Source: Pyrinomonadaceae bacterium (GTDB taxonomy: Bacteria > Acidobacteriota > Blastocatellia > Pyrinomonadales > Pyrinomonadaceae). From it: DNA of 64,000 bases. Below are positions 6,334-50,496 of this stretch, piece by piece (position 1 is the first letter of the stretch; each line of letters begins with the position of its first letter). A model generated the notes under the pieces. The model ran no database searches. It saw nothing but the letters and a program-made list of their open reading frames with translations, and was not told the DNA's origin. Position numbers and translations under genes: made by a program. The stretch is from NCBI GenBank assembly GCA_036386415.1, contig DASVVT010000088.1, positions 1-64,000 of the forward strand. The letters run 5' to 3'.

Positions 6334-6478
6334 ACAGTAGACAGTAGTCAGTAGTCAGTAGTCAGTAGATAAACCGAGTGCCTGTTACGCTCTCAATTAT
6401 GATTCATAATGAGCCGTATCAACCGAGTCAACCGATTTTCTGTTCTACTGGCTACTGACTACTGTCTACTGTCTACTG
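6331..6478. repeat. AGTAGTC-heptamer hairpin element, copy A (loop module in reverse orientation)
   Basis: Left arm TAGACAGTAGACAGTAGTCAGTAGTCAGTAGTCAGTAG (6331-6368) pairs with right arm CTACTGGCTACTGACTACTGTCTACTGTCTACTG (6445-6478). The 76-nt loop contains, on the minus strand, AGAAAATCGGTTGACTCGGTTGATACGGCTCAT. Confidence 0.9.
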
Positions 6479-7390
6479 CTTTCCAATCACTGCAAGCAAT
6501 CGACCCGTGCGACCGTAGACGCTCTTTTCGCGACGGTAGGAGAAGAAGAGGTCTGTCCGGCACATCGTGCAGAGCGGTGCGATATGGATGGCCTCTGCCG
6601 GAACGCCCCCTGCAATCAACTGATTGCGGTTCGCTCTTTGAAGATCAATGCGCGCGTGCCCGCCCTGTGTCGGCGTGAACAACTCGTCTGCGTCGTTGAA
6701 GCGCTCGTGGAAAGCTTGGACGACTTCGCCGCCGACTTCATAGCAGCACGCGCCCGCCGCCGGGCCGATAGCGGCGCACACATCCTGCGCGCTTGTGCCA
6801 TACTTCTCGCTCATACGTTCGAGCGTGCGTGTGATGATGGAAGAGAGCGTGCCGCGCCACCCGGCATGGACGGCTGCCACCGCGCCCTTCTTCATGTCGC
6901 CCAGTAGCACAGGTACGCAATCGGCTGTTTTGATGCCGAGCAGAATGTTCGGCCTATCGGTCGTCAGAGCATCGCAATGCTCCGTGTCGTTGCGTGCGTC
7001 GTCGCGGTCTTGAACGACGCGCACGTCTGCGCTGTGCACCTGCCAGCAGGCCGTGAGCATCCAGTCGCCTTCCAGGAGCTTGAGAAAGCGACGACGGTTC
7101 TCGTATATATTCTCGGCAGCGTCCTCGTTAAAGCCTGCGAGGTTGAGCGCATCCTGCGGCATGGGGCTACAGCCGCCCAGTCGCGTCGAAAAAGCGTTGG
7201 TAAAACCATGACGCTCAAGCGGCTCGCACACCAGCGCGCGCACGCTTGATTGCTCGCGCCAGAAGAATCCGGCGCGCTTTAACTCTGCATCATCCGTGAT
7301 CATTTCAATCGGTATAGACATGATCGAAGTCCGTCGCGTACGCGAAGTCATCTCGCGCACGCCGCGTTTCGTCGAGCGCGTTTTCACCAT
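6473..7390 (-). CDS. pgeF: Peptidoglycan editing factor PgeF / YfiH (DUF152 laccase-domain purine nucleoside phosphorylase)
   Basis: HAGWRG and CxxC...H motifs of the YfiH family. The true start is probably an internal Met near 7320 (MSIPIEM), because the listed start overlaps acpS. The stop codon lies in the right arm of repeat A. Confidence 0.8.
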   Translation of the reverse strand: MVKTRSTKRGVREMTSRTRRTSIMSIPIEMITDDAELKRAGFFWREQSSVRALVCEPLERHGFTNAFSTRLGGCSPMPQDALNLAGFNEDAAENIYENRRRFLKLLEGDWMLTACWQVHSADVRVVQDRDDARNDTEHCDALTTDRPNILLGIKTADCVPVLLGDMKKGAVAAVHAGWRGTLSSIITRTLERMSEKYGTSAQDVCAAIGPAAGACCYEVGGEVVQAFHERFNDADELFTPTQGGHARIDLQRANRNQLIAGGVPAEAIHIAPLCTMCRTDLFFSYRREKSVYGRTGRLLAVIGKQ

Positions 7391-7691
7391 CAGCGAGCGC
7401 GCCTACTGCGACGGGCGTGGAGTCGTCGCCGCAGAGCACTACGCCGCGCGCTTTGCCGCCAAAGAAGCGACCCTCAAAGCCTTCCAGACGGGCTGGACGG
7501 GCGGCATCGCCTGGCAGGACATCGAAGTCGGACAGCGCGACACGGGCGCACCCTTTCTACAGTTTCACGGTCGCGTCCTTGAGCTCTACAAACAATCAGG
7601 CGCGAGCGCCGCTCATCTCTCCATCTCACACACGACCGAACACGCCATCGCCCAGGTGATCCTCGAACGCTCCTTTAAAACTACGGCATAA
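7296..7691 (+). CDS. acpS: Holo-[acyl-carrier-protein] synthase (4'-phosphopantetheinyl transferase)
   Basis: N-terminal IISIGIDMIEVRRV and FAAKEATLKA motifs; ~125 aa. Confidence 0.9.
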   Translation: MIISIGIDMIEVRRVREVISRTPRFVERVFTISERAYCDGRGVVAAEHYAARFAAKEATLKAFQTGWTGGIAWQDIEVGQRDTGAPFLQFHGRVLELYKQSGASAAHLSISHTTEHAIAQVILERSFKTTA

Positions 7692-7793
7692 TTTAACCAC
7701 AAAGACACGAAGGCACGAAGGCAGGCACAGGGTAATAGTGTTGAATAGCAAGGTAGCTCTACCCTTTGATCTACTATTCACCACGCACTATTT

Positions 7794-7965
7794 AACGTGA
7801 GTTCGACGTCAGCGGCTGTGCGGAAAGGCAGAGCCTTTCCGTTAACGGCTGACTTTATTTGGAGCGAGGCGCAGCCTCGCCAGTGATGGTGAGTAGCAGC
7901 GGACGGAAAGCCGTAGGCTTTCCGCACAGCCGAGGCGGCAGAGCCGCTGATGTCGAACTCACGTT
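7794..7965. repeat. MITE-like element with AACGTGAGTTCGAC terminal inverted repeats and nested internal hairpins
   Basis: Termini AACGTGAGTTCGACGTCAGCGGC ... GCCGCTGATGTCGAACTCACGTT. Interior has CGGAAAGGCAGAGCCTTTCCG and GGAAAGCCGTAGGCTTTCC sub-hairpins. The same TIR recurs at 46803-46851. Confidence 0.75.
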
Positions 7966-8020
7966 GTTTACTTTTCTTCGTGCCTTTCCGGTCTGTGTGG
8001 TGGGTTTCGGCTTCTGTTCT

Positions 8021-10603
8021 TTACTGGCTTGAAGCTCTGATGCGCACCTCGTTGGTGAGCGTGCGTTGTCCTCGCGTGTTGACTTCGACGCGCGTTCTTC
8101 CGGGTGCTGTGGCGTCCATCATCTCTTCGGAGGTCAGGGCACGCGGTGGCGGCTGGCGTCTGCTATAACCTTCGCTTGAGCCAGTGCGTGTTTGTTGGAC
8201 GATCACAGCATCGGTTTCGTCGTAGGGCTGTTCATCATCAGCTTCGGCTGTCAGCTCATACATCTCGCTGTGCTTGTAGCATTCGGTGGTCGTCACGAAA
8301 CTGCTCGCCACCGCAATGCGCTCGCGTTGCGGGCATGATGGGGTGACGCGCAGTCCCGTCTCCGGATCAATCTCGATGGTGGTGATGCCTGCCGGACGCG
8401 TGAACGCTTCGCCGCCAAGCGCAGGCCGCAGCTCAACCGCGCCCCGGACGAACTCAGTCCAGGCGGGCAGCGCCGCCTCTGCGCCCGTCAATCCCAGTTG
8501 CTCGTTATCGTCGAAGCCGATCCATACGGCGCACACAAGGTTCGGCGTGTAGCCCACGAACCATCCGTCGCGTGAAGTGCCCGTCTTACCGGCGATGGCG
8601 GTCTGGCGGACTGCGCCACGCGCGCCCCGCGCCGTGCCGTGATCTATCACGTCCGCGAGCATGTCCGTGATCATGTAGGCCGTGGTCGGATTGATGACTT
8701 GCCGCGCCTGGCGAACTTCGCCCAGAACTTCGCTCCCCTCAGCATTGGTGGCATGAGCGATGACCCTTGGCTCGACGCGCAAGCCATTGTTGACAAAGGT
8801 CGTGTAGGCCGCCGCCAGCCTGAGCGGCGTCGCTTCGGTCGTGCCGAGCGCGAGCGCCGGATAAGGCTCTGGCTTCGGTAATCCGAAGTTTTCGGCGAGG
8901 CGCGCGACACGCTCAAGCCCTGTCCGTGTGGCGACATCGACCGTCACGACGTTGAGCGAGTGGACGAGCCCCGTGCGCATCGTCACGTCCTGCATCGAAT
9001 AGCCACCGCCGTAATTGGCCGGACGATAGACGGCGCGGCGGTCGTAAACGAACTCGCGCGGCGCATCCTGGTACATCGAAAGCGGCGAGATACCGCTCTC
9101 AAGCGCCGCCGCATAAACGACAGGCTTGAAGACGGAGCCGGGCTGACGCCGTGCGTCCGTGGCGCGATTCAATTGAGAATCAGTGTAGTCGCGCCCGCCG
9201 ACCATCGCCAGCACAGCGCCCGTCTGCGGGTCGAGCGCAACGAGCGCCGCCTGCGGCCTGACGCCTCTGGCCTTATAAATTTTGTCGAGGTGTTCGAGCT
9301 GACGCCTGACGGCTGTCTCGGCCAGTTGCTGCAAGTCCAGATCAATCGTCGTGTAGATACGCAAGCCGCGCTCATCCGGCTGGCCTGATGTCTCCAGCTC
9401 AGATTCGACCACGCGGTTGACGTAGTCTACGAAGTAGGGCGCGAGCGATTCGTTCCCACTCTCAAGGGGCGCAATCTTCAGGGGCTCCCTGGCAGCGGTA
9501 GCGGCCTCTTCGAGTGTGATTCGATGATCGCGCACCAACGTGCCGAGAACCGTATTGCGTCGCTCAAGGGCTGCCTCCGCGTGGCGGTCGGGCGCATAGC
9601 GGTTCGGGCTCTGAATCATGCCCGCAATCGTCGCGGCCTCTGCCAGCGAGAGGTCTTTCAACTCTTTCCCGAAGAAGACGCGCGCCGCCTGCCCGACGCC
9701 GCGCACCGAAACAGCGCCGCGCTGGCCGAGGTAAATCTCGTTGCAGTAGAGCGCGAAGATGTCTTCTTTCGAGAGACGACGTTCGAGCGTGAAGGCGAGC
9801 ATCGCTTCGGCAAACTTGCGGCTCAGGGTGCGCTCCGGCGAGAGGTACGTGTTCTTGACGAGCTGCTGCGTGATGGTCGAGCCGCCCTGCCCTATCTCCT
9901 GATCGCCCGCGTTGCGCAAGAGCGCGCGACCGATGCCGAAGAGATCGACGCCGCGATGCTCGAAGAAACGATGGTCTTCAATCGAGAGGATGGCGTGTGC
10001 CACCAGAGGCGGAATGTCCGCGTAAGCGAGCGTGGCACGCTGGCCTGTTTTCATGGAAACGTCGGTCGTCAGGACTTCCGGCTCCAGCCTGTAAGAATCA
10101 AGCCGCGCGCCTCCCTCATTCGTGATCTCTGCAACGTGGTCGTTCTTGCCAAAACTGATGCGCACAACTTCCGCGTCGCTCGCAGCGTTTGACCGACGCG
10201 GATGAATCAAGACCGCGCCGGGCTCAACACGGAAGCTGCCGCTCCAGACATCGCTGGCCTCGCTTTCCAGATAACCGGCGCGTCGCAAGAGCGCGACCAA
10301 CCCATCGCGCGAGAGCGTCTGACCCGTCTGAAGCGTGCGCGGCGCGGCATAGATTCCGGCGCGGCTCGTCAGATAACCGTGAGCCAGACGCGCATCGACG
10401 ATCCTTGAATAAGAGACATAGGAGTAGGTCAAAAAGGCAATCGCTGCACAGAGAGAGAGGAGCGCCGCAATGGTGAGCGAGCGAAGAACGTTTCGACGCG
10501 TGCGTAAGGAATCGGCAGTTACATTCCGACGAAAGACCTTGCCCATTCCCTTGATGACACGTGGTGGCCGCCTCTCATGTACAGATGTAACCTCGATTGC
10601 CAT
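8021..10603 (-). CDS. mrcA: Penicillin-binding protein 1A (bifunctional GT51 transglycosylase / transpeptidase)
   Basis: GT51 motif EDHRFFEHRGVD. Transpeptidase motifs SVFKP (SxxK), SLN and KTGT. N-terminal TM anchor. Confidence 0.9.
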   Translation of the reverse strand: MAIEVTSVHERRPPRVIKGMGKVFRRNVTADSLRTRRNVLRSLTIAALLSLCAAIAFLTYSYVSYSRIVDARLAHGYLTSRAGIYAAPRTLQTGQTLSRDGLVALLRRAGYLESEASDVWSGSFRVEPGAVLIHPRRSNAASDAEVVRISFGKNDHVAEITNEGGARLDSYRLEPEVLTTDVSMKTGQRATLAYADIPPLVAHAILSIEDHRFFEHRGVDLFGIGRALLRNAGDQEIGQGGSTITQQLVKNTYLSPERTLSRKFAEAMLAFTLERRLSKEDIFALYCNEIYLGQRGAVSVRGVGQAARVFFGKELKDLSLAEAATIAGMIQSPNRYAPDRHAEAALERRNTVLGTLVRDHRITLEEAATAAREPLKIAPLESGNESLAPYFVDYVNRVVESELETSGQPDERGLRIYTTIDLDLQQLAETAVRRQLEHLDKIYKARGVRPQAALVALDPQTGAVLAMVGGRDYTDSQLNRATDARRQPGSVFKPVVYAAALESGISPLSMYQDAPREFVYDRRAVYRPANYGGGYSMQDVTMRTGLVHSLNVVTVDVATRTGLERVARLAENFGLPKPEPYPALALGTTEATPLRLAAAYTTFVNNGLRVEPRVIAHATNAEGSEVLGEVRQARQVINPTTAYMITDMLADVIDHGTARGARGAVRQTAIAGKTGTSRDGWFVGYTPNLVCAVWIGFDDNEQLGLTGAEAALPAWTEFVRGAVELRPALGGEAFTRPAGITTIEIDPETGLRVTPSCPQRERIAVASSFVTTTECYKHSEMYELTAEADDEQPYDETDAVIVQQTRTGSSEGYSRRQPPPRALTSEEMMDATAPGRTRVEVNTRGQRTLTNEVRIRASSQ

Positions 10604-11246: not shown

Positions 11247-11261
11247 GCTTTGCACAAAAAT

Positions 11262-11392
11262 AGGTTCAAATAATATATACAACTAGTATATACAAATTGT
11301 ATATACTACTTGTAATTATCATCAGTATATACAACTTGTATATATCTTTTGTATTTACAACTTGTATATACTGATGATATATACCTTCACCT
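11262..11392. promoter_or_regulatory. AT-rich array of seven GTATATAC(-like) 8-mers plus a 15-bp inverted repeat (ATCATCAGTATATAC...GTATATACTGATGAT); putative operator/iteron region of the island
   Basis: Read directly: repeated (A/T)CAACTTGTATATAC units at ~12-26 bp spacing immediately upstream of the zinc-ribbon/RM operon. Confidence 0.55.
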
Positions 11393-11414: not shown

Positions 11415-11603
11415 GTGGCCGAAACCAAACTCCCGATTGGAATGGTCAAGCTAGACGGATGCAGATGCAGGTGTGGGCACGAATGGATACCGCGCGTCAA
11501 AGGGGAAAGACCTGCTAATTGCCCTCAGTGTAAAGCTTCAAAGTGGGACAAGCCGAAAGCTTTCAGCCGAAACAAATCAGCTAACAAGAGGGAAGGCGCG
11601 TAA
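11415..11603 (+). CDS. Small zinc-ribbon protein (CxCxC...CPQC) with lysine-rich tail; candidate controller/partner of the downstream RM enzyme
   Basis: 62 aa, motif GCRCRCGHEW...CPQCKASKW. Its TAA stop overlaps the ATG of the next gene (TAATGG at 11601-11605), so the two are translationally coupled. Low-GC codon usage. Confidence 0.5.
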   Translation: MAETKLPIGMVKLDGCRCRCGHEWIPRVKGERPANCPQCKASKWDKPKAFSRNKSANKREGA

Positions 11604-14296
11604 TGGCTCGGTCAACTAAGAAGAGGACGGGAAAGGGTCGCCCTGTAAATAAATACTGCTCGCTGTCCGCGTTGCATAACGAGAGTGACGTAGAGCAGTT
11701 TTTTGTTATGCCACTTCTGACCGATCTAGGTTATGGGCCAGAGTATTTAGAAACTAAGGCGACAGTAACTCAGGTAAAGATAGGAAAGGGGAAGGGAAAG
11801 AAATCCTATATACCAGATTATCTTGCGTATATCAGCACGGAAAAAGAAAAACCTGTACTTATTATAGATGCCAAACATCCCAATCATTCAGCCGAAGAGG
11901 GAGTCAACGATGCACAGCTTTATGCTTCAGTAATTCGCAGGAAGATGGCCGAACCTAAGCCAGAGCAGTATTGTATTGGCGTAAACGGGCATAAATTGAT
12001 ACTGAAGCATTATGATAGTGATGCGTCGATTTACGAATTATCATTCCAAGATTTCAAGGATGACAATCTACTTTTTACCGCTTTCAAACAAGCAATCAAC
12101 CGTGAATCTCTAACTCGTAAACAGAAATTAAAAGAAAAGGAACCGAAAAGCGATTTCGAGTTCCGAACGGTCTCACCGGTTGAACTGCCCGCCATTTTTG
12201 AAGCGTGTCACCGAGCGATCTGGAAAACAGAAAAGCGTAGCCCCGCATCGGCCTTTTATGAATTTGCAAAAGTCATGTTCGTAAAGATTGATGAAGACAA
12301 ACGGTTACATGAACATCTTATCTCAACCAGCCACGATTTTTCATCCGGCAAAGTTCCCAAAGGGGCTGTGCGATTCTCTGTCCATTGGATTGAAGAGATG
12401 GAAGAAGAAACGGATACAGATGATCCAATTAACACTATTCTGTTTGCGCGACTGGCTAAAAATTTAGAAGAACAAATTGCAAACAAAGAGAAGAAACGTA
12501 TTTTCGAGCCAGGTGAGCTAATCAACCTCGCCCCATCTACTATCAAAGATGCAGTAAGATTTTTAGAACACTTAGACCTGTATGCCGTAGATGAAGACCT
12601 TAACGGACGACTCTTCGAGACGTTTTTAACTGCAACTATGCGAGGTGAAGATTTGGGCCAATTCTTCACTCCGCGCTCTGTCGTAAAGTTCATGGTGAAG
12701 TTGGCTAACCTTCAAGCCGCACCGCTAAAAGCGATGGATATGGTCTTAGATGGTTGCTGCGGTACGGGCGGCTTTTTGATTGAGGCGATGGCTGATATGA
12801 GTCACAGCGTGTCAAGCAATCGGGCAATCACAACGAAAGAACAAGAGACACTTCACCGACAATTAAGAACCGAGAATTTATGGGGCATTGATGCTGGTAA
12901 AGACCCTTTGATGGCTCGTATTGCCCGCCTAAACATGCTCCTACACAAAGATGGCGGGAGTCGCATTTACTATGCAGACGCTTTAGACAAACAGTTACGG
13001 ATAGAGTCAGGGTTGCCACTTCAAACACGCCAAGAGATTGACGAACTCCGGTCGAACATAGTAACCGGCGATACACGGTTTTCCTGTGTCCTGAGCAACC
13101 CGCCATTCTCGATGACTTATGAAAGGAAGAAACCAAACGAGAAAGCAATATTAGATGATTACGAATTATCGGTTGATGAAAAGGGAAAGCCAAGAACGTC
13201 ACTACGTTCTTCCGTAATGTTCTTGGAAAGATATTGGGACTTACTAACGGACGATGGCCGCCTCATTACCATTATGGACGAAAGCGTCCTCAATACGCTC
13301 ACGTCCAAACCATTCAGGGAATACCTGCTAGAAAAGTTTATCATCAAGGGTGTTATCGCGCTTCCCAAAAACACTTTTGTCAAGGCGCAGACCGCAGTTA
13401 AGACTTCCGTACTCTTTCTGCGAAAGAAGACCGATCCCGACGAACGCCAACCGGATATATTCATGGCGATTTGCCGGAATGTCGGGCACAGTGACTCTGG
13501 AAAGGAAAGGCCGCACCTCAACGAACTTCCTAATATCCTAAAGGCATTTCGCGTGTTTCAGGAAAAGGGGTCTGTAAAATCTTCAGATCAAGTATTCACC
13601 GTTCCTGACTTGCTGCCGAACAACCCAACTCTGCGTATTGACGCGCATTACTTTAATCCAAAGTATTTCTCTACGATGAAAGCCCTAGATAAAATGGCCT
13701 CAGATAGAGGATGGAAAATTGATACTCTCCAAGACCTGCTAAGGGAAAGCAAGACAGCACTTGCTGGTGGAGCAACCCCGCGAGGCGCATTGTATCCAGA
13801 TGACGGCCCAAAATTCATTCGTGTCCAGAACGTAAAGCCAAACAGATTAGATTGGGACTCAGACGATGCTTGTATTGACACGCGAACACATACGGTAACT
13901 CTAAAGAGGTCTCAGTTAAAAGAAGGTGATGTTGTTCTTACCATTACCGGCAGTTATGGGATTGCCGCAGTTGTTCCGGCAGGATTCGGAGAGGCAAACA
14001 TCAATCAGCATTCCGTTAAGATCGAAGTCGGAGACAAGATCATACCGGAGTACCTTAGCGTCTTTCTAAATTCCAATTTATGCAGACCTCAGTTTGAGAG
14101 GGCAGTAACAGGGTCAAGCAGGCTGGCTTTAGATTACACTTCAATCCGCAATCTACGCATTCTCTATCCAGAGGACAAAGACGAACAACGTAGAATTGCG
14201 AACACCATAATGAAGCAGCTAGAGGCAGTTTCAAATCTGAGGCGTGATGCCACCGCTTTAGATAAAGCGATGGGCGAAGTTCTAACTAACCTTTAG
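11603..14296 (+). CDS. Single-chain restriction-modification enzyme: N-terminal HsdR_N-type PD-(D/E)xK nuclease-like domain, gamma-class N6-adenine DNA methyltransferase (HsdM-like), C-terminal HsdS-like target-recognition domain
   Basis: N-terminus ESDVEQFFVMPLLTDLGYG...IPDY...LIIDAK (PD...D-x-K). MTase motif I region DLGQFFTPRSVV...VLDGCCGTGGFL, motif IV NPPFS. C-terminal TRD resembles an HsdS half (…VVLTITGSYGIAAV…SSRLALDYTSIRNLRILYP). ~42-48% GC against ~63% in flanking genes. Confidence 0.8.
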   Translation: MARSTKKRTGKGRPVNKYCSLSALHNESDVEQFFVMPLLTDLGYGPEYLETKATVTQVKIGKGKGKKSYIPDYLAYISTEKEKPVLIIDAKHPNHSAEEGVNDAQLYASVIRRKMAEPKPEQYCIGVNGHKLILKHYDSDASIYELSFQDFKDDNLLFTAFKQAINRESLTRKQKLKEKEPKSDFEFRTVSPVELPAIFEACHRAIWKTEKRSPASAFYEFAKVMFVKIDEDKRLHEHLISTSHDFSSGKVPKGAVRFSVHWIEEMEEETDTDDPINTILFARLAKNLEEQIANKEKKRIFEPGELINLAPSTIKDAVRFLEHLDLYAVDEDLNGRLFETFLTATMRGEDLGQFFTPRSVVKFMVKLANLQAAPLKAMDMVLDGCCGTGGFLIEAMADMSHSVSSNRAITTKEQETLHRQLRTENLWGIDAGKDPLMARIARLNMLLHKDGGSRIYYADALDKQLRIESGLPLQTRQEIDELRSNIVTGDTRFSCVLSNPPFSMTYERKKPNEKAILDDYELSVDEKGKPRTSLRSSVMFLERYWDLLTDDGRLITIMDESVLNTLTSKPFREYLLEKFIIKGVIALPKNTFVKAQTAVKTSVLFLRKKTDPDERQPDIFMAICRNVGHSDSGKERPHLNELPNILKAFRVFQEKGSVKSSDQVFTVPDLLPNNPTLRIDAHYFNPKYFSTMKALDKMASDRGWKIDTLQDLLRESKTALAGGATPRGALYPDDGPKFIRVQNVKPNRLDWDSDDACIDTRTHTVTLKRSQLKEGDVVLTITGSYGIAAVVPAGFGEANINQHSVKIEVGDKIIPEYLSVFLNSNLCRPQFERAVTGSSRLALDYTSIRNLRILYPEDKDEQRRIANTIMKQLEAVSNLRRDATALDKAMGEVLTNL

Positions 14297-19857: not shown

Positions 19858-19990
19858 AAGTAGACAGTAGACAGTAGCCAGTAGTCAGTAGAAAAGAACA
19901 TCCGTTGATGCTATTCAATCATAGACTTCAGCGACAGCGTTCAATGCGCGGAGCGCCTACTGACTACTGTCTACTGGCTACTGACTACTG
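19858..19990. repeat. AGTAGTC-heptamer hairpin element, copy B
   Basis: Arms AAGTAGACAGTAGACAGTAGCCAGTAGTCAGTAG and CTACTGACTACTGTCTACTGGCTACTGACTACTG. Loop AAAAGAACATCCGTTGATGCTATTC… is a degenerate version of the conserved module. Confidence 0.9.
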
Positions 19991-26337: not shown

Positions 26338-26442
26338 GTCGGTTAAATCAGTAAACTGCCGGGAGAGCTAAAAATGACAGAAGCTATGTTACCCGAAAGC
26401 CCATTTTTTTGCGACTGGTAATTCGAGGAAAGAAGAGAATAA

Positions 26443-26527
26443 ACCGCAAAGGACGCAAAGAATGAAGACGCTAAGGGCGCGAAGAAGAGTTTCCTTTGCG
26501 TCTTCAAGTTTGCGTCCTTTGCGTTTA
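26443..26527. repeat. CGCAAAG-type hairpin element, copy G1
   Basis: CGCAAAGGACGCAAAGAATGAAGACGC … GCGTCTTCAAGTTTGCGTCCTTTGCG. Confidence 0.8.
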
Positions 26528-26579
26528 GAGTTTTCCGTATCGACAAAGGAGACCCGACCTCGTCAGTAATGGGTGCTCC

Positions 26580-29057
26580 TCACTGTGGGTTATGCCACCT
26601 CGCTATCTGGACGGATGGTTTGCCCCCGGCCCTGGAAAAATCGCCGACGACAAATATGTCGTCTCCACGGATAGCCGCTCCCCCTGCCGTGCTACTAAGC
26701 CCGCTCCCCATCGCAGACCAACCGCTCCCATCCCAGACGGCGATGTTATTAGCAGCAGTGCCACCGGCCTCCATGAAATAGCCTGTGGCGATCAAGCTGT
26801 CATCGTCGAACTTGAGGCCAAGGACGTACGGCAACCCCTCCGACGTAGAGCCTGTCAGGCCGGAGCCGAGGCCGCTCCACTTGCTCCCGTTCCACTTCGC
26901 TATATTGTTGACGGTGCTGCCTCCGGCGAAGTCGAAAGAGCCTCCGACATATACGTCACGACCTTTGTGAGCAACTGCAAAGACGGGGCCATTGACCCCG
27001 TTATATCCGCCTTCGCCGCCGGGTATCGGAACGATAAAGGCCGACCACCTGTTGCCGTCCCATTTCGCGATGTTGTTAGCGCCGCTTCCGCCAGCCAGCG
27101 AAAAAGAGCCCCCGACATACAGATTGTTTCCACTGGCTTCGAGAGCAAACACGTAGCCCTGGTAGATACCGTTCAGCTCTCCCTTGCCGAGCGTAGACCA
27201 GCTCACTCCGTCCCACCTGGCGATACTGTTGGCGGGCACGTCCCCCGCTACGTCAAAGAATCCTCCGGCGTACAGATTACCCTTATCGTCCAGGGTGAGA
27301 GAGAAAACAATATCATCTACACTGTCGCCGATCCCGCTCCCCAGGGCAGACCAGTTCATCCCGTCCCACCTGGCGATCCTGTTGGCCGGAGTGTCCCCGG
27401 CGAATGAGAAATAGCCGCCGACGTAAAGATCGTCTCCCTTGATCGCAATCGCGTTTATAAAGCCGTTGACGCCGTCGTGTACCCCCGATCCTAAGGTTGA
27501 CCACCTCCTTCCGTTCCACCTGGCAATGCCGTTCGCCAGGATGCCCCCGATCCACATCTTATCTCCGGCCACGTAGATGTCGTCCCCGCTGATTGCGATG
27601 GCGCTGAGGTTGCCCTCATTAACTCCGTTGTGCGCCCCGGCATCCGCCATCGCCGCCCACGACTGTGCGGCGGCATCCCACTTCGCCACGTGAAATACGC
27701 GCTCATCTCCCGCCTGGTTGAACGCGCCGACCGCGTAGAGGCCGCTCTCATTTCCGGCGATTCCGAGGACGGAAGCGTTGTATCTGAAGCCCTCCTCGAA
27801 TCCACCTGTAAGCCCCTCGTCAAGGGGCAGCCACCTGCCGTCCCAACGCGCGATGCTATTGGCCCGGACTCCGCCCGCAGAGTTGAAGTCTCCCGCCGCG
27901 TAGAGACGGTGATTGATGACGGCCAGTCCTCTAACGCGGGCGCTTACCTCTCCGCCGTTCTGCAACAGCCCGTCTCCCAGGCCGCTCCACGCGCGCCCGT
28001 TCCAGCGTGCGATATGGTTAATATTGTTTCCGCCCGCGTGACGAAAGAAGCCGCTCGCATAAACGGTCGCCCCATCGACGGCGAGCGCGAGCACCCAGTC
28101 GTCCATCCCCGTCGCGAGCGGCGACCAGGTGGCGTCCGCGCGATTCCACATCGCCACGTAGTTGGCCGCAAGCGTCCCGGCCAACTCGAACTTGCCTCCA
28201 ACGTAGACCTGATTTCCCCTCACGGCGATGGCGGCGATAAAAGCAGGGTCTTCCGGGTCGGGCATGCTTACGCCGCCCCCCGCATCCGACCATGTTTGAC
28301 TCGCCGTATCCCAGCGTGCCAGGTTCGATACCGGCAGACCGCCCGCTTTCGAGAAGTGCCCCCCGGCGTAGAGTTCCTGCCCCGCTGTCGCCAGGGCGTA
28401 GACGAGGACGCCGAACGTGCCTTGCAGTCCGTTACTCTCTCCTGCACCGAGCGGATACCACAATCCGCCCCGCCACCTGGCGATGTTATGAGCACGAACT
28501 TTACCGGCCTGGGAGAAGCTGCCTCCGACGTAAACATCCTCGCCGGAAAAAGCGATGCTGTAGACTGTGCCGTTGACGCCGTTGTTCTCGTTGATCCCAA
28601 GCGAGCGCCAGCGCAGGCCGTCCCACCTCGCGATATTATTGACGCTCGCGTGACTGACGGTCATAAATCTGCCCCCGATAAAGACCTCTGAGCCACGGAC
28701 TGCGACCGTATAGACTTCCGGCTGATCCGTACCGGGCGAGCTCCAGCGTGGGTCCCAGTTGCGGTCTGAGGGGACGGTCTGGATGCCTGCTTCAGCTTCT
28801 ACAGTCAAAGGCTCGAACCTGGGTTGCCCGCTCGAATCCGTCCTCAGCCTCCAGCCTCTGGCATCGAACGATTCATGTAGGTTCTGCTTCAGCGTCCCAT
28901 CCGGGTTGAGCGCCTCCCGGATCAGTTTCCGCGTCGCAAGCGGCGTCGCATCTCTATCTTTGGGTGGCGGGATGCTTCTTTGAGCGTGAGCAGGCCAGAC
29001 CAGCAGTAAAAGCAGTGGTAAAATGGCAATCCTCAGAACAAACCTTGCAACCGGCAT
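26580..29057 (-). CDS. Secreted beta-propeller repeat protein (~14 tandem ~50-aa repeats of the delta-60/SBBP-like type)
   Basis: Signal peptide. Repeated pattern …(V/I)YVGG.F..AGG…ANNIA(R/K)W(D/N)G..WS.LG.G… seen ~14 times. Confidence 0.6.
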   Translation of the reverse strand: MPVARFVLRIAILPLLLLLVWPAHAQRSIPPPKDRDATPLATRKLIREALNPDGTLKQNLHESFDARGWRLRTDSSGQPRFEPLTVEAEAGIQTVPSDRNWDPRWSSPGTDQPEVYTVAVRGSEVFIGGRFMTVSHASVNNIARWDGLRWRSLGINENNGVNGTVYSIAFSGEDVYVGGSFSQAGKVRAHNIARWRGGLWYPLGAGESNGLQGTFGVLVYALATAGQELYAGGHFSKAGGLPVSNLARWDTASQTWSDAGGGVSMPDPEDPAFIAAIAVRGNQVYVGGKFELAGTLAANYVAMWNRADATWSPLATGMDDWVLALAVDGATVYASGFFRHAGGNNINHIARWNGRAWSGLGDGLLQNGGEVSARVRGLAVINHRLYAAGDFNSAGGVRANSIARWDGRWLPLDEGLTGGFEEGFRYNASVLGIAGNESGLYAVGAFNQAGDERVFHVAKWDAAAQSWAAMADAGAHNGVNEGNLSAIAISGDDIYVAGDKMWIGGILANGIARWNGRRWSTLGSGVHDGVNGFINAIAIKGDDLYVGGYFSFAGDTPANRIARWDGMNWSALGSGIGDSVDDIVFSLTLDDKGNLYAGGFFDVAGDVPANSIARWDGVSWSTLGKGELNGIYQGYVFALEASGNNLYVGGSFSLAGGSGANNIAKWDGNRWSAFIVPIPGGEGGYNGVNGPVFAVAHKGRDVYVGGSFDFAGGSTVNNIAKWNGSKWSGLGSGLTGSTSEGLPYVLGLKFDDDSLIATGYFMEAGGTAANNIAVWDGSGWSAMGSGLSSTAGGAAIRGDDIFVVGDFSRAGGKPSVQIARWHNPQ

Positions 29058-32359: not shown

Positions 32360-32440
32360 AGCGTCCTTTGCGCCAATCCTTTGCGTTCTTTGCGTTGAGA
32401 GGTTTTTCAACGCACAGAACGCAAAGGAGGAAGACGCTGG
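32360..32440. repeat. CGCAAAG-type hairpin element, copy G2 (degenerate)
   Basis: GCGTCCTTTGCG CCAATCCTTTGCG TTCTTTGCG … CGCACAGAACGCAAAGGAGGAAGACGC. Confidence 0.7.
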
Positions 32441-32661
32441 AGGTGCGCGAAGAATGATCTATTTAATGGACATCGCTTGCGCGCCGGATAACCATCTGAG
32501 CAAACAGGCGGGCAGGAATTCCGCCCAAACACCACGCAAATCGTCCGGGAATTATGGAAAACCGGCTTGCTCAGATCGTGCAGAGCGCGGTAAAGTAGCA
32601 GCCGATTAACAATCCCCGCGCACTCCCTCGGTTTTCAAAAGCTTGCTGGAGGTCACTTCTG

Positions 32662-35052: not shown

Positions 35053-35094
35053 GGCATCAGGTCAGTACCGCCTGCTTAAGCCGGGCGGGAGATA

Positions 35095-35208
35095 GGATTG
35101 CGGAATGCGGATTTCGGATTGCGGATTTATGCTTCTTAATCTCGAATCTGAAATTTGAGATTCCAGATCACAAATCTTGTAATCCGCAATCCACAATCTA
35201 CAATCCCC
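35095..35208. repeat. ATTGCGG-heptamer hairpin element, copy 1
   Basis: Arms GGATTGCGGAATGCGGATTTCGGATTGCGGATTT and AATCCGCAATCCACAATCTACAATCCCC. The loop is the reverse complement (~80% identical) of the loop at 59677-59729. Confidence 0.85.
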
Positions 35209-35275
35209 ATTTGGCAGAGGCGCGCTCAGAATTACCTGACGGGCGCGCCTCGAATTTCGTATCCAAGGAAATCAG

Positions 35276-40162: not shown

Positions 40163-40612
40163 GTGTCTAGCGAAATGGCTGAACTGTTGCGCGCACTCGC
40201 CGCACGGCTGCACAGGTACATAGGTGATCGTCGTCGCGCCCCACGACACGGGGTGCGCCTGGCCGTCACTCTCTGGCTGCCTGACGGCCCGCTCAATTCA
40301 AACGGCGTGCGCCGACGCTCGCCCGTGCTTGAGGGCTTCACACGCGATGTGAGCGCAACCGGGCTGGCGCTCATCCTGCCCGCCATTCGCATCGGCGAAC
40401 ACTACCTGATCGGCGAAGGCCGCAACCTGCGCCTCCGGCTTGAACTTCCGACGGGGGCGATCCAGATGGATGTCACTCCCGTGCGCTACGAGCGTCTTGA
40501 AGAGGAGCAGGCGGAAAAGGGCTACCTCATCGGCGTCCTGATCGCGGAGATGAGCGACGAAGATCGCCAACGCTACAACGAAGGAATGAAAACAGTAGAC
40601 AGTAGCCAGTAG
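40163..40612 (+). CDS. PilZ-domain c-di-GMP-binding protein
   Basis: RRRAPRHGVRL (RxxxR) and DVSATGLAL (DxSxxG) PilZ motifs. The last 5 codons and the TAG stop lie in repeat C. Confidence 0.7.
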   Translation: MSSEMAELLRALAARLHRYIGDRRRAPRHGVRLAVTLWLPDGPLNSNGVRRRSPVLEGFTRDVSATGLALILPAIRIGEHYLIGEGRNLRLRLELPTGAIQMDVTPVRYERLEEEQAEKGYLIGVLIAEMSDEDRQRYNEGMKTVDSSQ

Positions 40613-40740
40613 TCAGTAGCCAGTAGAAAAGAAAATCGGTTGATGCGGTTGATACGGCTCATCTAACTTCATAGTAGGCAGCAAAGCTTGATGCCCTGCT
40701 TTCGTTTCTACTGGCTACTGACTACTGGCTACTGTCTACT
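40594..40740. repeat. AGTAGTC-heptamer hairpin element, copy C (perfect 33-bp stem)
   Basis: AGTAGACAGTAGCCAGTAGTCAGTAGCCAGTAG / exact reverse complement at 40707-40740. Loop AAAAGAAAATCGGTTGATGCGGTTGATACGGCTCATCT…. Confidence 0.95.
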
Positions 40741-41389
40741 CCTCCTCAAACCCGAGCCAGCCGAAGACTTCCGGCACGTGAAAGTTGGGCTGCGCGGTGC
40801 GCGTCGGTTGCCAGGCGAGGTAGCCGCGCTCCGGGCCTGCGCCGACGCAGCGAAAGAGGTTTACGCGCCAGCGCTCCCCAGCCTGCGGCGCATGCGGAAA
40901 AGCCCTCCAGGGCACGCGCATGGCAATCGTCACACGGGCTTCAAGGATACGCGCGGCGGCTGACATTCCTGAACGGTATTGCCAGTCTGTCTCGCGCGCT
41001 GCTCGTTTCTGCCGGATCGCCAGGTCCAGCCATTCGCCCGTCGGCGCGGCCTCGAACTCGAAATAACGCTCAGGCTCACGCGCCTCCACGGCGACGAAGA
41101 TTTCGCACACGTCGCGCTCCCAGAGGCCGACTGTTTTCTCTTCTCTCTGCGGCGCGGCGCTCATCACGAGAGGTTCATCCTGACGACAGTCGAAGCGCAC
41201 ACACAGCGCCGTCTCCGACCACAGGATGCGCACCTTTGCCTGACGTCCGGCAGGGGCTTCCTCGCCAGACCAGTATCGCTTGATGTGAACAGGAGACGCC
41301 CCCTCCCATTCGTCGTGATCCAGATCGGAGGCCATCACATCCGCGCTCGCACGATGCGCGACGATCAAATCGGAAGTCTCAGTTACCAT
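40736..41389 (-). CDS. Hypothetical protein (possibly a CBM9-like carbohydrate-binding fold) bracketed by repeat copies C and D
   Basis: 217-aa ORF with normal codon usage and several conserved Trp. The stop lies in the right arm of repeat C and the start is 5 nt from repeat D. Confidence 0.45.
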   Translation of the reverse strand: MVTETSDLIVAHRASADVMASDLDHDEWEGASPVHIKRYWSGEEAPAGRQAKVRILWSETALCVRFDCRQDEPLVMSAAPQREEKTVGLWERDVCEIFVAVEAREPERYFEFEAAPTGEWLDLAIRQKRAARETDWQYRSGMSAAARILEARVTIAMRVPWRAFPHAPQAGERWRVNLFRCVGAGPERGYLAWQPTRTAQPNFHVPEVFGWLGFEEE

Positions 41390-41393
41390 ATTT

Positions 41394-41535
41394 AGTAGAC
41401 AGTAGTCGGTAGACAGCAGACAGTAGAAAAGAAAATCTGTTGACGCGGTTGATGCTGCTCATCTCAATCATCGTAGGCAACGTAGTAGATACTCTGTTTT
41501 ATCTACTGCCTACTGACTACTGACTACTGTCTACT
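41394..41535. repeat. AGTAGTC-heptamer hairpin element, copy D
   Basis: Arms AGTAGACAGTAGTCGGTAGACAGCAGACAGTAG / CTACTGCCTACTGACTACTGACTACTGTCTACT (imperfect). Loop AAAAGAAAATCTGTTGACGCGGTTGATGCTGCTCATCT…. Confidence 0.9.
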
Positions 41536-42086
41536 TCTTCCATTGTTCCAGCGCATCCATGCAGGTCTTGAGCAGGCGTGCCGGATCGTCATTATGAAAG
41601 ACGCTCGCACCAGTTTTCTTGGGCAACGTTTGAAGAAGACGGGCGACTTCATCGGCGACACCTCCCGTCCCCGTCAGGCAGCCGATGATGCGACCCTCGT
41701 CGTGGGCGATGGTGAATTCGTTGAGTGCGCCCATCGAGCCTCCGATGACGATCACTATATCGCATGACCGCACGAGCACGACGTTGCGTCCCTTGAGCCC
41801 GAAGCCCGTGTAGATGATGAGGTCGCAGGCGTCCACCGGAAGCCCGTAAGCGCCAATGTGCTCGTGCTCGTTCGCGGCAGGCGAGACGCCGACGTGGAGC
41901 CCGCCCGCTTCATGCGCGGCGCGCCCCGCGATGTCAGGCAATCCCGTCGTCGCACCCGTCAGCAGCACCAGACCGCGCGCGGCGCACTGTCGTCCGAGCG
42001 CTTCCGATTTCTCACGCACAGCAACAGCTACGCCCCCTGCTGGCAGCGTATCGTCTGCCGAACCCATGATGCCGACCTTAATCTTC
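41531..42086 (-). CDS. TIGR00725/LOG-like Rossmann-fold protein (lysine-decarboxylase-like family)
   Basis: MKIKVGIMGSA… N-terminus, GGSMGALNEF (compare the LOG PGGxGTxxE motif). The ORF-track start at 42145 is probably a spurious extension. The stop lies in the right arm of repeat D. Confidence 0.6.
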
Positions 42087-42145
42087 ATGAAAAGCAGGAG
42101 ACAGAATACAGAATACAGGAGACAGAATAAAACCGTAGGGGCCAT

Positions 42146-42241
42146 TTAAACGCAGAGGACGCAAAGGTATTTCGCAAAGGAGGCCAAAGAGTAAATCCTC
42201 TGCGTACTCTGCGTAGAACCTTTGCGCCCTCTGCGTTTAAA
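42146..42241. repeat. CGCAAAG-type hairpin element, copy G3
   Basis: TTTAAACGCAGAGGACGCAAAGGTATTTCGCAAAGG … CCTCTGCGTACTCTGCGTAGAACCTTTGCGCCCTCTGCGTTTAAA. The TAA stop of the MFS gene lies in the terminal TTTAAA. Confidence 0.85.
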
Positions 42242-43607
42242 TTGCGCTCGTCTGAGGCGTTTCCTCTGTTTCCTCTGCATCACGCGCGTCGTTCCACCAC
42301 CGCTCCGTGGTGAACCAGAGCGCGCCGGGCACTAGAAAAAGAAGGCCGATGCCGACGGTCACGGTACGCGGCGAGAACTGGAAGCGGTCGAGCAGCTCGC
42401 CCGTCACGTAATTCGAGGCGGCCATCGTCAGCGTGAACAGTGCCAGCTCGGCGGCAAAGACGCGCCCGCGAAAGTTGTCTTCGACCACGCGTTGCAGCAG
42501 CACCGTCGAGAAGACCCAGAGGATGCTGCCGCCCATGTGAGCGACGAGCAGCACCAGGAGTGCCACCATGAAGTTCGTCGCCCGACCGAAAGCGATGTAG
42601 AAGATACCGCCCATGATGAATGCGCCGCCGATAGCGCGTTGCATGTCCCAGCGCATTTCACCACTAAAGCGCCGGGCAGCGAGCGGCCCGATGGCCGTGC
42701 CGATTCCGCGCGCCGCGTAGAGCACGCCGATTCCGGTCGCGGTGCTGCCGCCGACGGGAAAAATCTTTTCGCCGAAGACGGCCAGCAGAGCGAGTATGCC
42801 GCCGCCCAATCCCCAGGCCGGTTTGACCAGCATCAGGGCGAGCACGCGCGGGCGCTTTAACACGTAGCGCATACCATCCAACGTATCCGTGATCCCGAGC
42901 GCATGCTTGATGGTCAGCCTACGCTTAACGCGCGGCTCTCGTCCGGGGAAGCGCACCCTGGCGATGAGGGCTGCCGAAGCGAGATAGGTCAGCGAATCGA
43001 GCACGAAGGCTGCGTCCGTGCCGAACCAACCCGTGACCACGCCGCCAATTGCTGCGCCCAGCGTGAGCATGACAGACCAGGTGACAGACGAGATGGCGTT
43101 TGCCGCGACCAGCTCGCGCGGCGCGACGAGAGACGGAATGGCAGCCGTTTTCGCCGGTTCGAAGAAGGTCGAAAAGACCAGTTGCAGAACCGTCAGCGCG
43201 TAGACGAGCCACATCTGGTCAGGACGGCGCACCAGCAGAAACCCGAGCACGACTATGGCGCGCAAGAGGTCTGACACGATCATGATCGAGCGACGGCTGA
43301 AGCGATCCGCAACGACGCCAGAGAGCGGTCCCAAAATGAAGCTCGGCACAAAGCGCGCCACAAGGACGAGGCCGACGGCGCGACCCGACCCCGTCAGGTT
43401 CAGGACAATCGTGTAGAGGGCGATGGTGTCGAACCAGTCACCCATCTGGCTGACGACCTGGCCTAGCCAGAGCTGCCGGAAATTGCGGTTCGTGCGAAGC
43501 AGCTCGAGATAGCCGACCGCTCGCCTTTCACCTGCGCTCAACGTCTCACCTTCCGCTTTCAATATTGAAAGAGGGTGCACCCTTGAGAAAACGGTTGTCA
43601 ACCGCAC
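42237..43607 (-). CDS. MFS transporter
   Basis: 12-TM pattern with MFS signature loops (…GPLSGVVADRFSRR…). Confidence 0.8.
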   Translation of the reverse strand: MRLTTVFSRVHPLSILKAEGETLSAGERRAVGYLELLRTNRNFRQLWLGQVVSQMGDWFDTIALYTIVLNLTGSGRAVGLVLVARFVPSFILGPLSGVVADRFSRRSIMIVSDLLRAIVVLGFLLVRRPDQMWLVYALTVLQLVFSTFFEPAKTAAIPSLVAPRELVAANAISSVTWSVMLTLGAAIGGVVTGWFGTDAAFVLDSLTYLASAALIARVRFPGREPRVKRRLTIKHALGITDTLDGMRYVLKRPRVLALMLVKPAWGLGGGILALLAVFGEKIFPVGGSTATGIGVLYAARGIGTAIGPLAARRFSGEMRWDMQRAIGGAFIMGGIFYIAFGRATNFMVALLVLLVAHMGGSILWVFSTVLLQRVVEDNFRGRVFAAELALFTLTMAASNYVTGELLDRFQFSPRTVTVGIGLLFLVPGALWFTTERWWNDARDAEETEETPQTSAI

Positions 43608-43612
43608 GGAGA

Positions 43613-43715
43613 TTTAAACGCAAAGGACGCAAAGGCTCTTCGCAAAGGGCGCAGAGAAAGAAGAACCTCTTTGCGCGCCTCCAGCGTCTTCCTCCTTCGC
43701 GTCCTTTGCGTTTAA
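43613..43715. repeat. CGCAAAG-type hairpin element, copy G4
   Basis: TTTAAACGCAAAGGACGCAAAGGCTCTTCGCAAAGGGCGCAGAG … CCTCTTTGCGCGCC…TTCGCGTCCTTTGCGTTTAAA. Confidence 0.85.
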
Positions 43716-44287
43716 ATCCTTCCTCACCAGAACGGTTTCAAAAGGTTTCAGTCACAGCGTTGACCGAAATTATCAATCTGACCTATCAGATTGACGAACA
43801 ACTTCGTCCTGCGGCCTCACGTCGGAGAGCGATCTGCTTGCGATAAGCGCAGTGCCTTGCAGCATTTAGCTCATCCCGGTCGTCTCTCGCAAACTCGCGG
43901 CACATGGTTTGTTAAGTATCAGTGCGCGGCTCGAAGCGCCCTTAAAAAAGCGCTTCCCGAACTCTCCGCACGGAGTTCGGCTGAGGGCCGCGCCAAATTT
44001 GAAAAGCTGTAGCGTCCCCGTAACTTTTCCGGCGCTCTCATGGCCGGATCAATGACGCTCAAATGGACCCACTCACCCCCAGACAGGCGGGAACATGCGT
44101 TACCACAGCCCGCCGCTTGCCCCGTCCTATGCCGGAAGCGAGAGCTGAGTTGCTCCCAGCAATCGCTTCCGGCGATGGACTTTTTTGACAAATACCACGC
44201 GATCAGGCGTCCCGTGTGGCCGCGAGTGTGAATGGTTAAGCATAGAGAGAACGCACAGAGGGCGAAGTTCATCATCCGGACTGGAGA

Positions 44288-46804: not shown

Positions 46805-46851
46805 CGTGAGTTCGACATAAGCGGCACAGCCGCTTATGTCGAACTCACGTT
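46803..46851. repeat. Minimal copy of the AACGTGAGTTCGAC-TIR element (23-bp perfect stem, 4-nt loop) overlapping the stop codon of the HD-GYP gene
   Basis: AACGTGAGTTCGACATAAGCGGC ACAG GCCGCTTATGTCGAACTCACGTT. The gene's TAA stop is at 46802-46804. Confidence 0.85.
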
Positions 46852-47019
46852 AAATTAAGGGGCGCTTAAGGCTCAGGCAGAAGAAGCAATCCTGTTTTTG
46901 CTTCCTGCTGCCTCCTGCTTTTTGCCCTCTGCCTTCTGTTATATTATGGGCTGGGAGCGTTTTCCCCCCGGCGATGGTCGAAGAGGCCGCCGGAGCGCTT
47001 TCTGGAATCGCTTGCTGCC

Positions 47020-49074: not shown

Positions 49075-50496
49075 TTGAGCGACATGCAAGCGACACGACT
49101 CCTCGTTGCCGAAGACGAAGCCAATCTGCGCCTCGTGATTCAAAAGGAATTGCAGCGCCTGGGATTTCGTGTGGATGTTGTGCCGGACGGCGAGGCCGCC
49201 TTGCGCCGCCTCGAAGAGGGCAATGTCGATGTCCTCTTAAGCGACATCAACATGCCGCGCATTGACGGGATGGAGCTGCTCAAACGCGTGAGAGAGCGTC
49301 CCAACCCGCCCGAAGTGATCTTGCTCACAGGCCACGCCACGGTCGAGACCGCTATTGAAGCGATGAAGCTCGGCGCGTATGACTATCTGACCAAGCCGTA
49401 TCACATCACGGAGCTGGACGCGCTCGTCAAACAGGCTGCGGAAAAGCGTCGGCTGCGCGTTGACAACCAGCGCCTGCGTCAGCAACTGGCTCGCCAGTCG
49501 GAGATGCCGGAGATCGTCTCCGTCTCCGACCTCATGCGCGAGGCGCTACGCCTTGTCGAGCGCGTCGCGCCTTCGGACGCCTCCGTCTTAATCACGGGCG
49601 AATCCGGAACCGGCAAGGAGCTGATCGCGCACGCCATTCACAGACTCTCGACTCGCGCCGATGCATCCTTCATTGATCTCAACTGCGCCGCGTTTCAGGA
49701 GTCGCTTCTCGAATCAGAGCTTTTCGGTTACGAGGCGGGCGCATTCTCCGGCGCGAAGGGTCGCAAGCTCGGACTGATAGAACTGGCCGACGGCGGCACG
49801 CTCTTTCTGGACGAAGTGACGGAGCTGCCCACGCAGCTTCAATCGAAGCTGCTGCGCGCCATTGAGACGCGCACCTTCTACCGTGTCGGCGGCGTGCGCA
49901 AAGTCGAAGTCGATGTCCGCATCGTCGCGGCCACGAATCGCAATCTCGATCAGGTGGTCACGGATGGAACGTTCCGCTCCGACCTGCTCTATCGCATCAA
50001 CGGATTCCAGATAGACCTCTCGCCCCTGCGCGAAAGACCCGAAGACATAGAACCCCTGGCGCGCCATCTGCTCAAGCAGCTTTGTGGCGCGAATACTCCC
50101 GACCTGACACCCGAAGCGCTCGAAGCCCTGCGCGCCTATAGCTGGCCTGGCAACGTGCGCCAGTTGCGCAACTGCCTTGAGCGCGCCGTGCTGCTGGCAA
50201 ACGACTCGCTCATCACCCTTAACGAGCTACCGCCGGAGGTCGCGCGCCAGGCGGGCGCACCGCTGCCGATCATGACCGCTATGTCGGGCAGCACGGCGGA
50301 AGCGGGCAGCACCAGCGCACAAAGTTCTTCCGGCTCCGCTTCGCCCGCATCGCTGCGCGAAGTCGAGCGCCAGCAGATTCTCGCCGCGCTCGAACAAACG
50401 GGCTGGCATCGCGGCAAGACAGCCGAAATCCTCGGCATCTCGCCCTCCACGCTCTATCGCCGCCTGCGTGACTATAATCTTGAGCGTCGTAATTAA
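49075..50496 (+). CDS. Sigma-54-dependent response regulator (NtrC family: REC, AAA+ sigma-54 activator, Fis-type HTH)
   Basis: Walker A GESGTGKE, GAFSGA motif, ESELFGYEAGAF, C-terminal HTH (…KTAEILGISPSTLYRRL). Confidence 0.9.
   Translation: MSDMQATRLLVAEDEANLRLVIQKELQRLGFRVDVVPDGEAALRRLEEGNVDVLLSDINMPRIDGMELLKRVRERPNPPEVILLTGHATVETAIEAMKLGAYDYLTKPYHITELDALVKQAAEKRRLRVDNQRLRQQLARQSEMPEIVSVSDLMREALRLVERVAPSDASVLITGESGTGKELIAHAIHRLSTRADASFIDLNCAAFQESLLESELFGYEAGAFSGAKGRKLGLIELADGGTLFLDEVTELPTQLQSKLLRAIETRTFYRVGGVRKVEVDVRIVAATNRNLDQVVTDGTFRSDLLYRINGFQIDLSPLRERPEDIEPLARHLLKQLCGANTPDLTPEALEALRAYSWPGNVRQLRNCLERAVLLANDSLITLNELPPEVARQAGAPLPIMTAMSGSTAEAGSTSAQSSSGSASPASLREVERQQILAALEQTGWHRGKTAEILGISPSTLYRRLRDYNLERRN

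Follow-up and report, generated by a model that had tools for sequence, protein, structure and literature searches.

The window analysed here, that is, the whole 64-kb stretch of DNA, is a metagenomic contig (ENA ERZ27253090, k141_438582) that has a near-identical counterpart in JGI 3300034009 (Ga0334944_000014), and the best-named homologues of its proteins are found in MAGs of Pyrinomonadaceae (Acidobacteriota). Two palindromic elements, copy 1 and copy 2, lie in the window (Table 1). Copy 1 is located between the convergent acpS gene (7296–7691, + strand) and a PBP1A-type gene (8021–10603, − strand), and copy 2 is located between an HD-GYP/GAF/GGDEF gene (44288/44309–46804) and a response-regulator/histidine-kinase gene (47020–49059, + strand). 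The sequence AACGTGAGTTCGAC matches the window at exactly four sites, which form two inverted pairs, 7794 (+) with 7952 (−) and 46803 (+) with 46838 (−); four or more matches appeared in none of 100 dinucleotide-preserving shuffles of the window. The 22-nt sequence ACGTGAGTTCGACRTMAGCGGC, searched with up to three mismatches, returns the identical four sites against a chance expectation of 0.00.

An earlier note on this DNA placed two copies bounded by terminal inverted repeats at 7794–7965 and 46803–46851; both copies are real, and their true ends lie one base further inside. The 23-bp inverted repeats with nested sub-hairpins that it described for copy 1 are borne out, since the arms are complementary at 22 of 23 positions, with a single G versus A mismatch, and enclose three sub-hairpins, at 7821–7841, at 7904–7924 and in the central GCGAGGCGCAGCCTCGC sequence. 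The 191-nt region around copy 1 folds with −106.6 kcal/mol (z = −9.7). Copy 2 does consist of the terminal repeats only, and its arms show perfect complementarity, with a loop of ACA instead of the ACAG given in that note (23 + 3 + 23 = 49 nt). Both elements are bounded by AC…GT and carry termini of the 3′ type at both ends, with a consensus of about 20 bp, ACGTGAGTTCGAC(G/A)T(A/C)AGCGGC, that starts with 5′-AC. This placement of the ends rests on the empty sites and on the further copies of the family. The alternative ends AACGTG...CACGTT, which go with a 5-bp duplication AAATT, were ruled out and AC...GT was preferred because the final base of the duplications is not always A and because the IS982 family is defined by its AC ends; the duplications informing this placement include TAAAAGG (L027), TTTTCA (L008) and TAAAACA (L052).

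Table 1. Positions of the two elements, their target-site duplications and the hairpin-unit repeats in the window
Feature	Positions	Strand	Description
MITE copy 1	7795–7964	.	170 bp; no ORF; GC-rich hairpin modules inside
Copy 1 termini			ACGTGAGTTCGACGTCAGCGGC / ACGTGAGTTCGACATCAGCGGC; both of the transposase-3′-side type
Copy 1 left target-site duplication	7789–7794		TATTTA
Copy 1 right target-site duplication	7965–7970		TGTTTA; one substitution relative to the left
MITE copy 2	46804–46850	.	47 bp; two 22-bp termini ACGTGAGTTCGACATAAGCGGC around ACA
Copy 2 left target-site duplication	46797–46803		TAAATTA; includes bases 1 and 2 of the HD-GYP/GGDEF stop
Copy 2 right target-site duplication	46851–46857		TAAATTA
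Older long hairpin	7695–8005		Between acpS and PBP1A; arms of CACGAAGG-like units
CACGAAGG units	7695–7732/7971–8005
AGTAGAC/AGTAGTC units	6336–6478, 19859–19990, 40594–40741, 41394–41536, 56510–56636, 63213–63352
CGCAAAGGA units	26435–26545, 32376–32453, 42141–42245, 43609–43718, 50488–50581, 61472–61571
GGGATGA units	54640–54856
GCGGAAT/GCGGATT units	35085–35210, 59647–59719
GGCAGAAG units	~46865–46940

Target-site duplications flank both window copies, and each copy has an empty site in a close relative. Close Pyrinomonadaceae relatives carry the uninterrupted targets …AAAAGTAAATAGTG… (copy 1) and …GCGATAAATTAAGG… (copy 2) once each, and therefore both copies are insertions, with duplications of 6 and 7 bp. 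The empty site of copy 1 is found in a relative with 93% identical PBP1A (L066), whose orthologous spacer is 167 bp shorter and reads AAAAGTAAATAGTGCG without interruption. On the PBP1A strand, this relative reads ...GAAGAAAAG-TAAATA-GTGCGTGG... and the window reads ...GAAGAAAAG-TAAACA-[170 bp]-TAAATA-GTGCGTGG...; on the opposite strand, the empty site reads AAAAG-TAAATA-GTGCG, with the target single. The duplication of copy 1 picked up one substitution after the insertion. When the MITE and one duplication are removed, the acpS–PBP1A spacer of the window becomes a single long hairpin (−54 kcal/mol), and L066 has this spacer hairpin without the MITE. Copy 1 landed inside the loop region of this pre-existing hairpin. 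A more distant relative with 81% identical PBP1A carries an independent insertion at another position of the acpS–PBP1A spacer (L068, 10429–10607; L069, 2751–2929). This insertion is a related 179-bp MITE with variant termini (ACGTGAGATCGAGG..., ACGTGAGATCGAGGTAAGCGGC), flanked by a TAAATTA duplication of its own. The acpS–PBP1A spacer has served as a landing site more than once.

The empty sites of copy 2 are found in L060, L061 and L064, whose HD-GYP orthologues show 98%, 90% and 87% amino acid identity, respectively. These loci read ...CAGCGAT(A/T)AATTAAGG... with nothing in between, and the window reads ...CAGCGA-TAAATTA-[47 bp]-TAAATTA-AGG.... The insertion of copy 2 is recent, given the empty site next to a gene with 98% amino acid identity. 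As the earlier note had stated, copy 2 overlaps the stop of the HD-GYP gene; the TAA lies at 46802–46804 and shares one base with the element. This stop is rebuilt from TA of the duplication and the first A of the element, and the HD-GYP/GGDEF protein is therefore unchanged.

The terminus pattern AACGTGAGTTCGACNNNAGCGGC was scanned in one genome per species and then in JGI metagenomes, both collections excluding the assembly of the window itself. The scan returned 16 stretches from the species-representative genomes and 32 more from the metagenomes, so that the terminal repeat extends well beyond the two places at which it was first noticed. In the species-representative genomes, ten stretches are scaffold ends of Capnocytophaga sp. 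oral taxon 863, which is the signature of a collapsed repeat. Two Bacteroidales MAGs and one Chlorobiota MAG are further hosts, and four contigs belong to three Acidobacteriota MAGs, namely Pyrinomonadaceae (L010/L011 and L015) and one labelled as Acidobacteriota only (L012). Pairing of the termini over all loci gives two size classes. The non-coding class measures 47–257 bp, mostly about 204 bp, and resides in acidobacterial-type contigs of 56–63% G+C. Non-coding relatives of copy 1 of about 204 bp are numerous in soil metagenomes. More than 12 such elements, at unrelated sites and on unrelated contigs, have the same interior modules as copy 1, which aligns with them over its full length at about 70% identity with conserved module order. 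This order runs from the terminus through a GCGGC-NNN-GCCGC hairpin, a TGTGCGGAAAGSC-NNN-GSCTTTCCG hairpin and an AT-rich spacer to one or more central GCGAGGC-NNN-GCCTCGC hairpins, and from there through a second spacer, a CGGAAAGSC-NNN-GSCTTTCCGCACA hairpin and a GGCGGC-NNN-GCCGC hairpin to the other terminus. Many family members have one transposase-3′-like end (...GTAAGCGGC) and one transposase-5′-like end (...ATAAGAAC...), which is what internal deletion of an insertion sequence would leave.

With the ends set at AC...GT, perfect abutting AT-rich direct repeats of 6–9 bp flank 20 of 32 distinct insertions. In a control that combined left and right flanks taken from different insertions, a repeat of at least 5 bp was seen in only 2.5% of pairs, and this residual rate reflects how strongly AT-rich T...A targets such as TAATTA are preferred. 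The other 12 insertions lack a perfect duplication, and several of them, including copy 1 and L015, are off by one base. There are two copies in the 64 kb of the window, and the scanned loci of its relatives hold only one intact insertion (shared by L068 and L069) and one decayed insertion (L067); copy number in the lineage of the window looks low. The decayed MITE (L067, 9260–9420) has a mutated left terminus, ACGTCAGTACGAGG, and a doubled right end, with two ...CTTACGTCGAACTCACG sequences within 35 bp. In L012 (1194–1526), MITEs of 70 bp and 257 bp stand head to tail with only TAGATA between them; since this TAGATA serves the second element as its duplication too, that element inserted into the duplication of the first.

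The other size class consists of full-length insertion sequences. Termini of the form ACGTGAGTTCGA(C/T)NTAAG… bound elements of about 1.0 kb with an IS982-family DDE transposase in Capnocytophaga, Chlorobiota and Bacteroidales, and the termini ACGTGAGTTCGAC.TAAGC are common to the window MITEs and to the IS982 elements of about 1 kb in L017, L009, L034 and L052–54. In Capnocytophaga sp. oral taxon 863, one scaffold of 1033 bp (L017) is the whole repeat, starting with ACGTGAGTTCGACTTAAGCGGC and ending with ATATCGAACTCACGT, and its 303-residue ORF matches NF033520 (IS982 family, NCBIfam) with an E-value of 1.7e-83 and 279.9 bits against a curated cutoff of 130, and PF13612 (DDE_Tnp_1_3) with 7e-73. 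The Chlorobiota MAG (L009) carries a 1061-bp copy with a 311-residue homologue and a 9-bp duplication, TAATATATA. Seven additional copies of about 1.0 kb have homologous transposases. The transposase of the elements of about 1.0 kb was confirmed by tblastn; their flanks have 27–47% G+C, and those from named genomes (n = 3) belong to Bacteroidales and Chlorobiota MAGs. The most GC-rich full-length copy is L034, whose transposase has thousands of homologues. One of these homologues, P0051, is 75% identical to the transposase of L034 and bears the NCBI name 'IS982 family transposase [Pyrinomonadaceae bacterium]'. P0007 was considered as an autonomous insertion sequence from the samples of the window and was ruled out, as it comes from a different metagenome.

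The Pyrinomonadaceae MAG from which P0051 comes (GCA_037719565.1; L052–54) contains three identical 1000-bp copies with ends ACGTGAGTTCGACGTAAG..., bounded by ACGTGAGTTCGACGTAAGAATTG... and ...TTCGCTTACGTCGAACTCACGT and flanked by duplications of 7–8 bp (TAAAACA, TAAATTTA and TAAGTTA). Three further copies (L070–72) represent an 84%-identical relative with the duplications TAGTTTA, TTCATTA and TAAATA. The three identical copies and the further ones indicate that an active-looking IS982 element with the terminus of the window exists in Pyrinomonadaceae. The full-length element with a transposase between the same terminal repeats, for which the earlier note had proposed a search, is thus present in several phyla and in the family of the window itself. 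The Pyrinomonadaceae insertion sequence and the window MITEs share 18–19 terminal nucleotides and then diverge, with AGCGAA/AGAATT in the former and AGCGGC in the latter; because the sequences depart at this point, the Pyrinomonadaceae element is a close relative of the parent and not necessarily the parent. A resident insertion sequence of about 1 kb ending in ACGTGAGTTCGACGTAAGCGGC would be the autonomous partner of the window MITEs. IS982 transposase gives no tblastn match across the 64-kb window or in the acidobacterial MITE-bearing loci.

Full-length elements (1000–1132 bp) all start with AC and agree with the window MITEs in the terminal 12–19 nt with AC...GT ends, in AT-rich duplications of 6–9 bp and in the preference for T...A targets. 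They differ in that the full-length elements encode a DDE transposase of 295–311 residues and the window elements encode nothing. The transposase frame of the full-length elements enters the terminal inverted repeat or stops just before it. The stop lies inside the inverted repeat in Capnocytophaga (L017, 15–35), the stop TAA is formed at the junction of the insertion sequence and the target in Chlorobiota (L009, 1330–1356), and the stop TAG is about 22 nt from the end of the element, just upstream of the inverted repeat, in Pyrinomonadaceae (L053, 3880–3890). Since the transposase frame reaches the inverted repeat, the AGCGGC of the MITE terminus represents former coding sequence.

Insertion at both sites, target duplications, ends identical to those of IS982 elements and membership of a multi-copy family are all demonstrated by these comparisons, and there is little doubt that both window sequences are non-autonomous MITEs derived from an IS982-family insertion sequence. 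The reading of the two copies as a non-autonomous element, which the earlier note had put forward from the window alone, is therefore retained and narrowed to this family. The MITEs keep only the terminal inverted repeats of about 20 bp, which an IS982-type DDE transposase would recognise. A full-length insertion sequence elsewhere in the genome would provide this enzyme in trans; the transposase would bind both ends, cut at the AC termini and join the ends to staggered cuts separated by 6–9 bp in AT-rich T(A/T-rich)A targets, and gap repair would then leave the flanking direct repeats; the staggered-cut step is taken from the general chemistry of DDE transposases. Copy 1 is a 170-bp member of the family of about 204 bp common in soil Pyrinomonadaceae that came to rest in the loop of a hairpin, and copy 2 inserted precisely at the HD-GYP/GGDEF stop codon, which it restored. 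Nothing points to a host function, and most likely both elements are selfish DNA, neutral and located where insertion is tolerated.

The difference in size between the two copies was regarded in the earlier note as typical of a non-autonomous element; this agrees with a MITE, and the sizes themselves are best explained by internal deletions. Compared with the family, copy 1 is without 12 nt between two TGTGC repeats and without one of the two central hairpins, and copy 2 corresponds to the family sequence from which the whole stretch separating the left-hairpin GCGGC from the right-hairpin GCGGC has been removed. These junctions, as read from the alignments, suggest that sequence between short direct repeats (TGTGC, GCGGC) was lost from the hairpin-rich interior, and slippage across the palindrome may have produced them. 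Such deletions would also be compatible with the two copies being remnants of full-length IS982 elements that lost their transposase gene in place at each site and never moved as miniatures, and the 47-bp form has no second instance in any collection searched, as might be the case for remnants formed in place. The interior of copy 1, in contrast, is not derived from a transposase and matches the non-coding family of about 204 bp module by module, and members of this family sit at many unrelated sites with duplications of their own. Because the interior of copy 1 is homologous to this non-coding family, the element that inserted was already a MITE, and it is very unlikely that the two copies arose as remnants in place. 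At copy 2, such a remnant is inseparable from a MITE of about 200 bp that inserted and then collapsed; either way, the insertion is of the IS982 type.

The 47-bp copy may have shrunk once it had inserted and need not have moved as a minimal element. Neither the species-representative genomes nor the JGI metagenomes yielded another 47-bp copy, which favours shrinkage in place. That a perfect palindrome of 47 bp, with two 22-bp ends and a 3-nt loop, transposed at this size is improbable, even if the recent insertion and the perfection of the duplication and of both ends are compatible with it. If it did, the element would be about the shortest DDE-transposase substrate known to move in vivo, and the IS982 transposase would have to pair ends 3 bp apart; since duplex DNA cannot bend so tightly, the substrate would need a hairpin or cruciform (snap-back) form. 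Collapse in situ between the two GCGGC repeats accounts for the 47-bp copy more simply.

Each copy occupies an intergenic position or the end of a gene, is strongly palindromic and has a very stable fold, and copy 1 has convergent genes on either side, a setting in which a terminator would be expected. These features are shared with REP/BIME-like palindromes spread by RAYT and with functional host hairpins for termination or mRNA stabilisation. However, REPs produce neither target-site duplications nor empty sites such as those seen here, and DDE-type IS982 elements have ends identical to those of the window copies. In addition, the family measures about 200 bp and not 20–40 bp, and the termini are ACGT... 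and not the GTAG/CGTC tags that a REP survey names (PMC3733652). A T-run is absent after either hairpin on the transcribed strand, and the relatives dispense with the element at both sites. Promoter/terminator scans called no terminator-like site at copy 1, and at copy 2 they called one only on the minus (non-transcribed) strand, without an upstream gene. The terminator reading was rejected because the relevant strand has no terminator and the relatives have no element. A known structured RNA was likewise rejected, as Rfam covariance models gave no match at the gathering score in the whole window. It is thus scarcely conceivable that the two copies are REP-type palindromes or host hairpins.

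[quoted passage not shown] In P. gingivalis, terminal inverted repeats have been reported for the left end of MITE239 (ACGTGAGTTCGATATAAAGGAA), the right end of MITE700 (TCGAACTCACGT) and ISPg3 (ACGTCAGTTCGA), the last being labelled as IS5 family (Klein et al. 2015, PMC4596501). MITE239, MITE700 and ISPg3 have the same terminal core as the window MITEs and form a comparable pairing of non-coding low-copy elements with an insertion sequence of about 1 kb. The host of MITE239 and MITE700, however, belongs to Bacteroidota and that of the window to Acidobacteriota, the interior of the window elements consists of GC-rich hairpin modules, and the comparison covers the terminal inverted repeats. We take ISPg3 to be the same element as IS195 of P. 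gingivalis. In the Cardinium endosymbiont, MITECca01 (about 240 bp) derives from the IS982-family element ISCca4 and has kept the parental inverted repeats without a transposase (PMC9769881). MITECca01/02 resemble the window family as IS982-derived MITEs without a transposase and differ in host and probably in the subgroup of terminal inverted repeats. A short sub-terminal stretch of the parent persists in the Cardinium MITE, which occurs in high copy number in a single reduced genome, whereas the window family is found in many soil Pyrinomonadaceae and has an interior of palindromic hairpin modules. REP/BIME, Correia, RUP and ERIC sequences are, like the window copies, short, highly palindromic intergenic repeats, and gene ends are among their possible positions. 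REPs depend on RAYT tyrosine transposases (IS200/IS605-type) and show no target duplication, in contrast to the IS982-type ends and duplications of the window elements. Correia and RUP elements are linked to other IS families and to a TA target.

IS982-derived MITEs and MITEs with this core of the terminal repeat are already published, and the window family is mechanistically ordinary. A literature search on the terminus and on acidobacterial MITEs, with incomplete coverage, found no description of this MITE family in Acidobacteriota, and the family is apparently documented here for the first time for Pyrinomonadaceae. An IS982-type pair of insertion sequence and MITE is thereby documented in soil Pyrinomonadaceae (Acidobacteriota), and the general view of transposons is unchanged. 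The 12-nt terminus is conserved across Bacteroidota, Chlorobiota and Acidobacteriota, whose transposases are only about 52% identical, and is a useful marker for finding further members. With the exact ends, duplications and empty sites at hand, annotators can mask or label these palindromes and avoid calling them as terminators or RNA genes.

Many intergenic spacers of the window contain long hairpins whose arms are tandem units of 7–8 nt, with several unit types in one genome (Table 1). The unit in the spacer between the HD-GYP gene and the response-regulator/histidine-kinase gene varies among relatives, being GGCAGAAG-like in the window and L060 and GGGATGA in L061 and L064. This fast-turnover system of hairpin-unit repeats is separate from the MITE. 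At 11261–11392, about 8–10 TATATACAACTTG-like units form an AT-rich tandem array with a period of 13 bp, upstream of an N6_Mtase/Eco57I-type restriction-modification gene (11603–14296) and within a stretch of low GC content (0.51 at positions 12–16 kb compared with about 0.60 elsewhere). Diverged direct repeats with a period of about 150 bp (families D4, D5 and D12) occupy 26700–28640.
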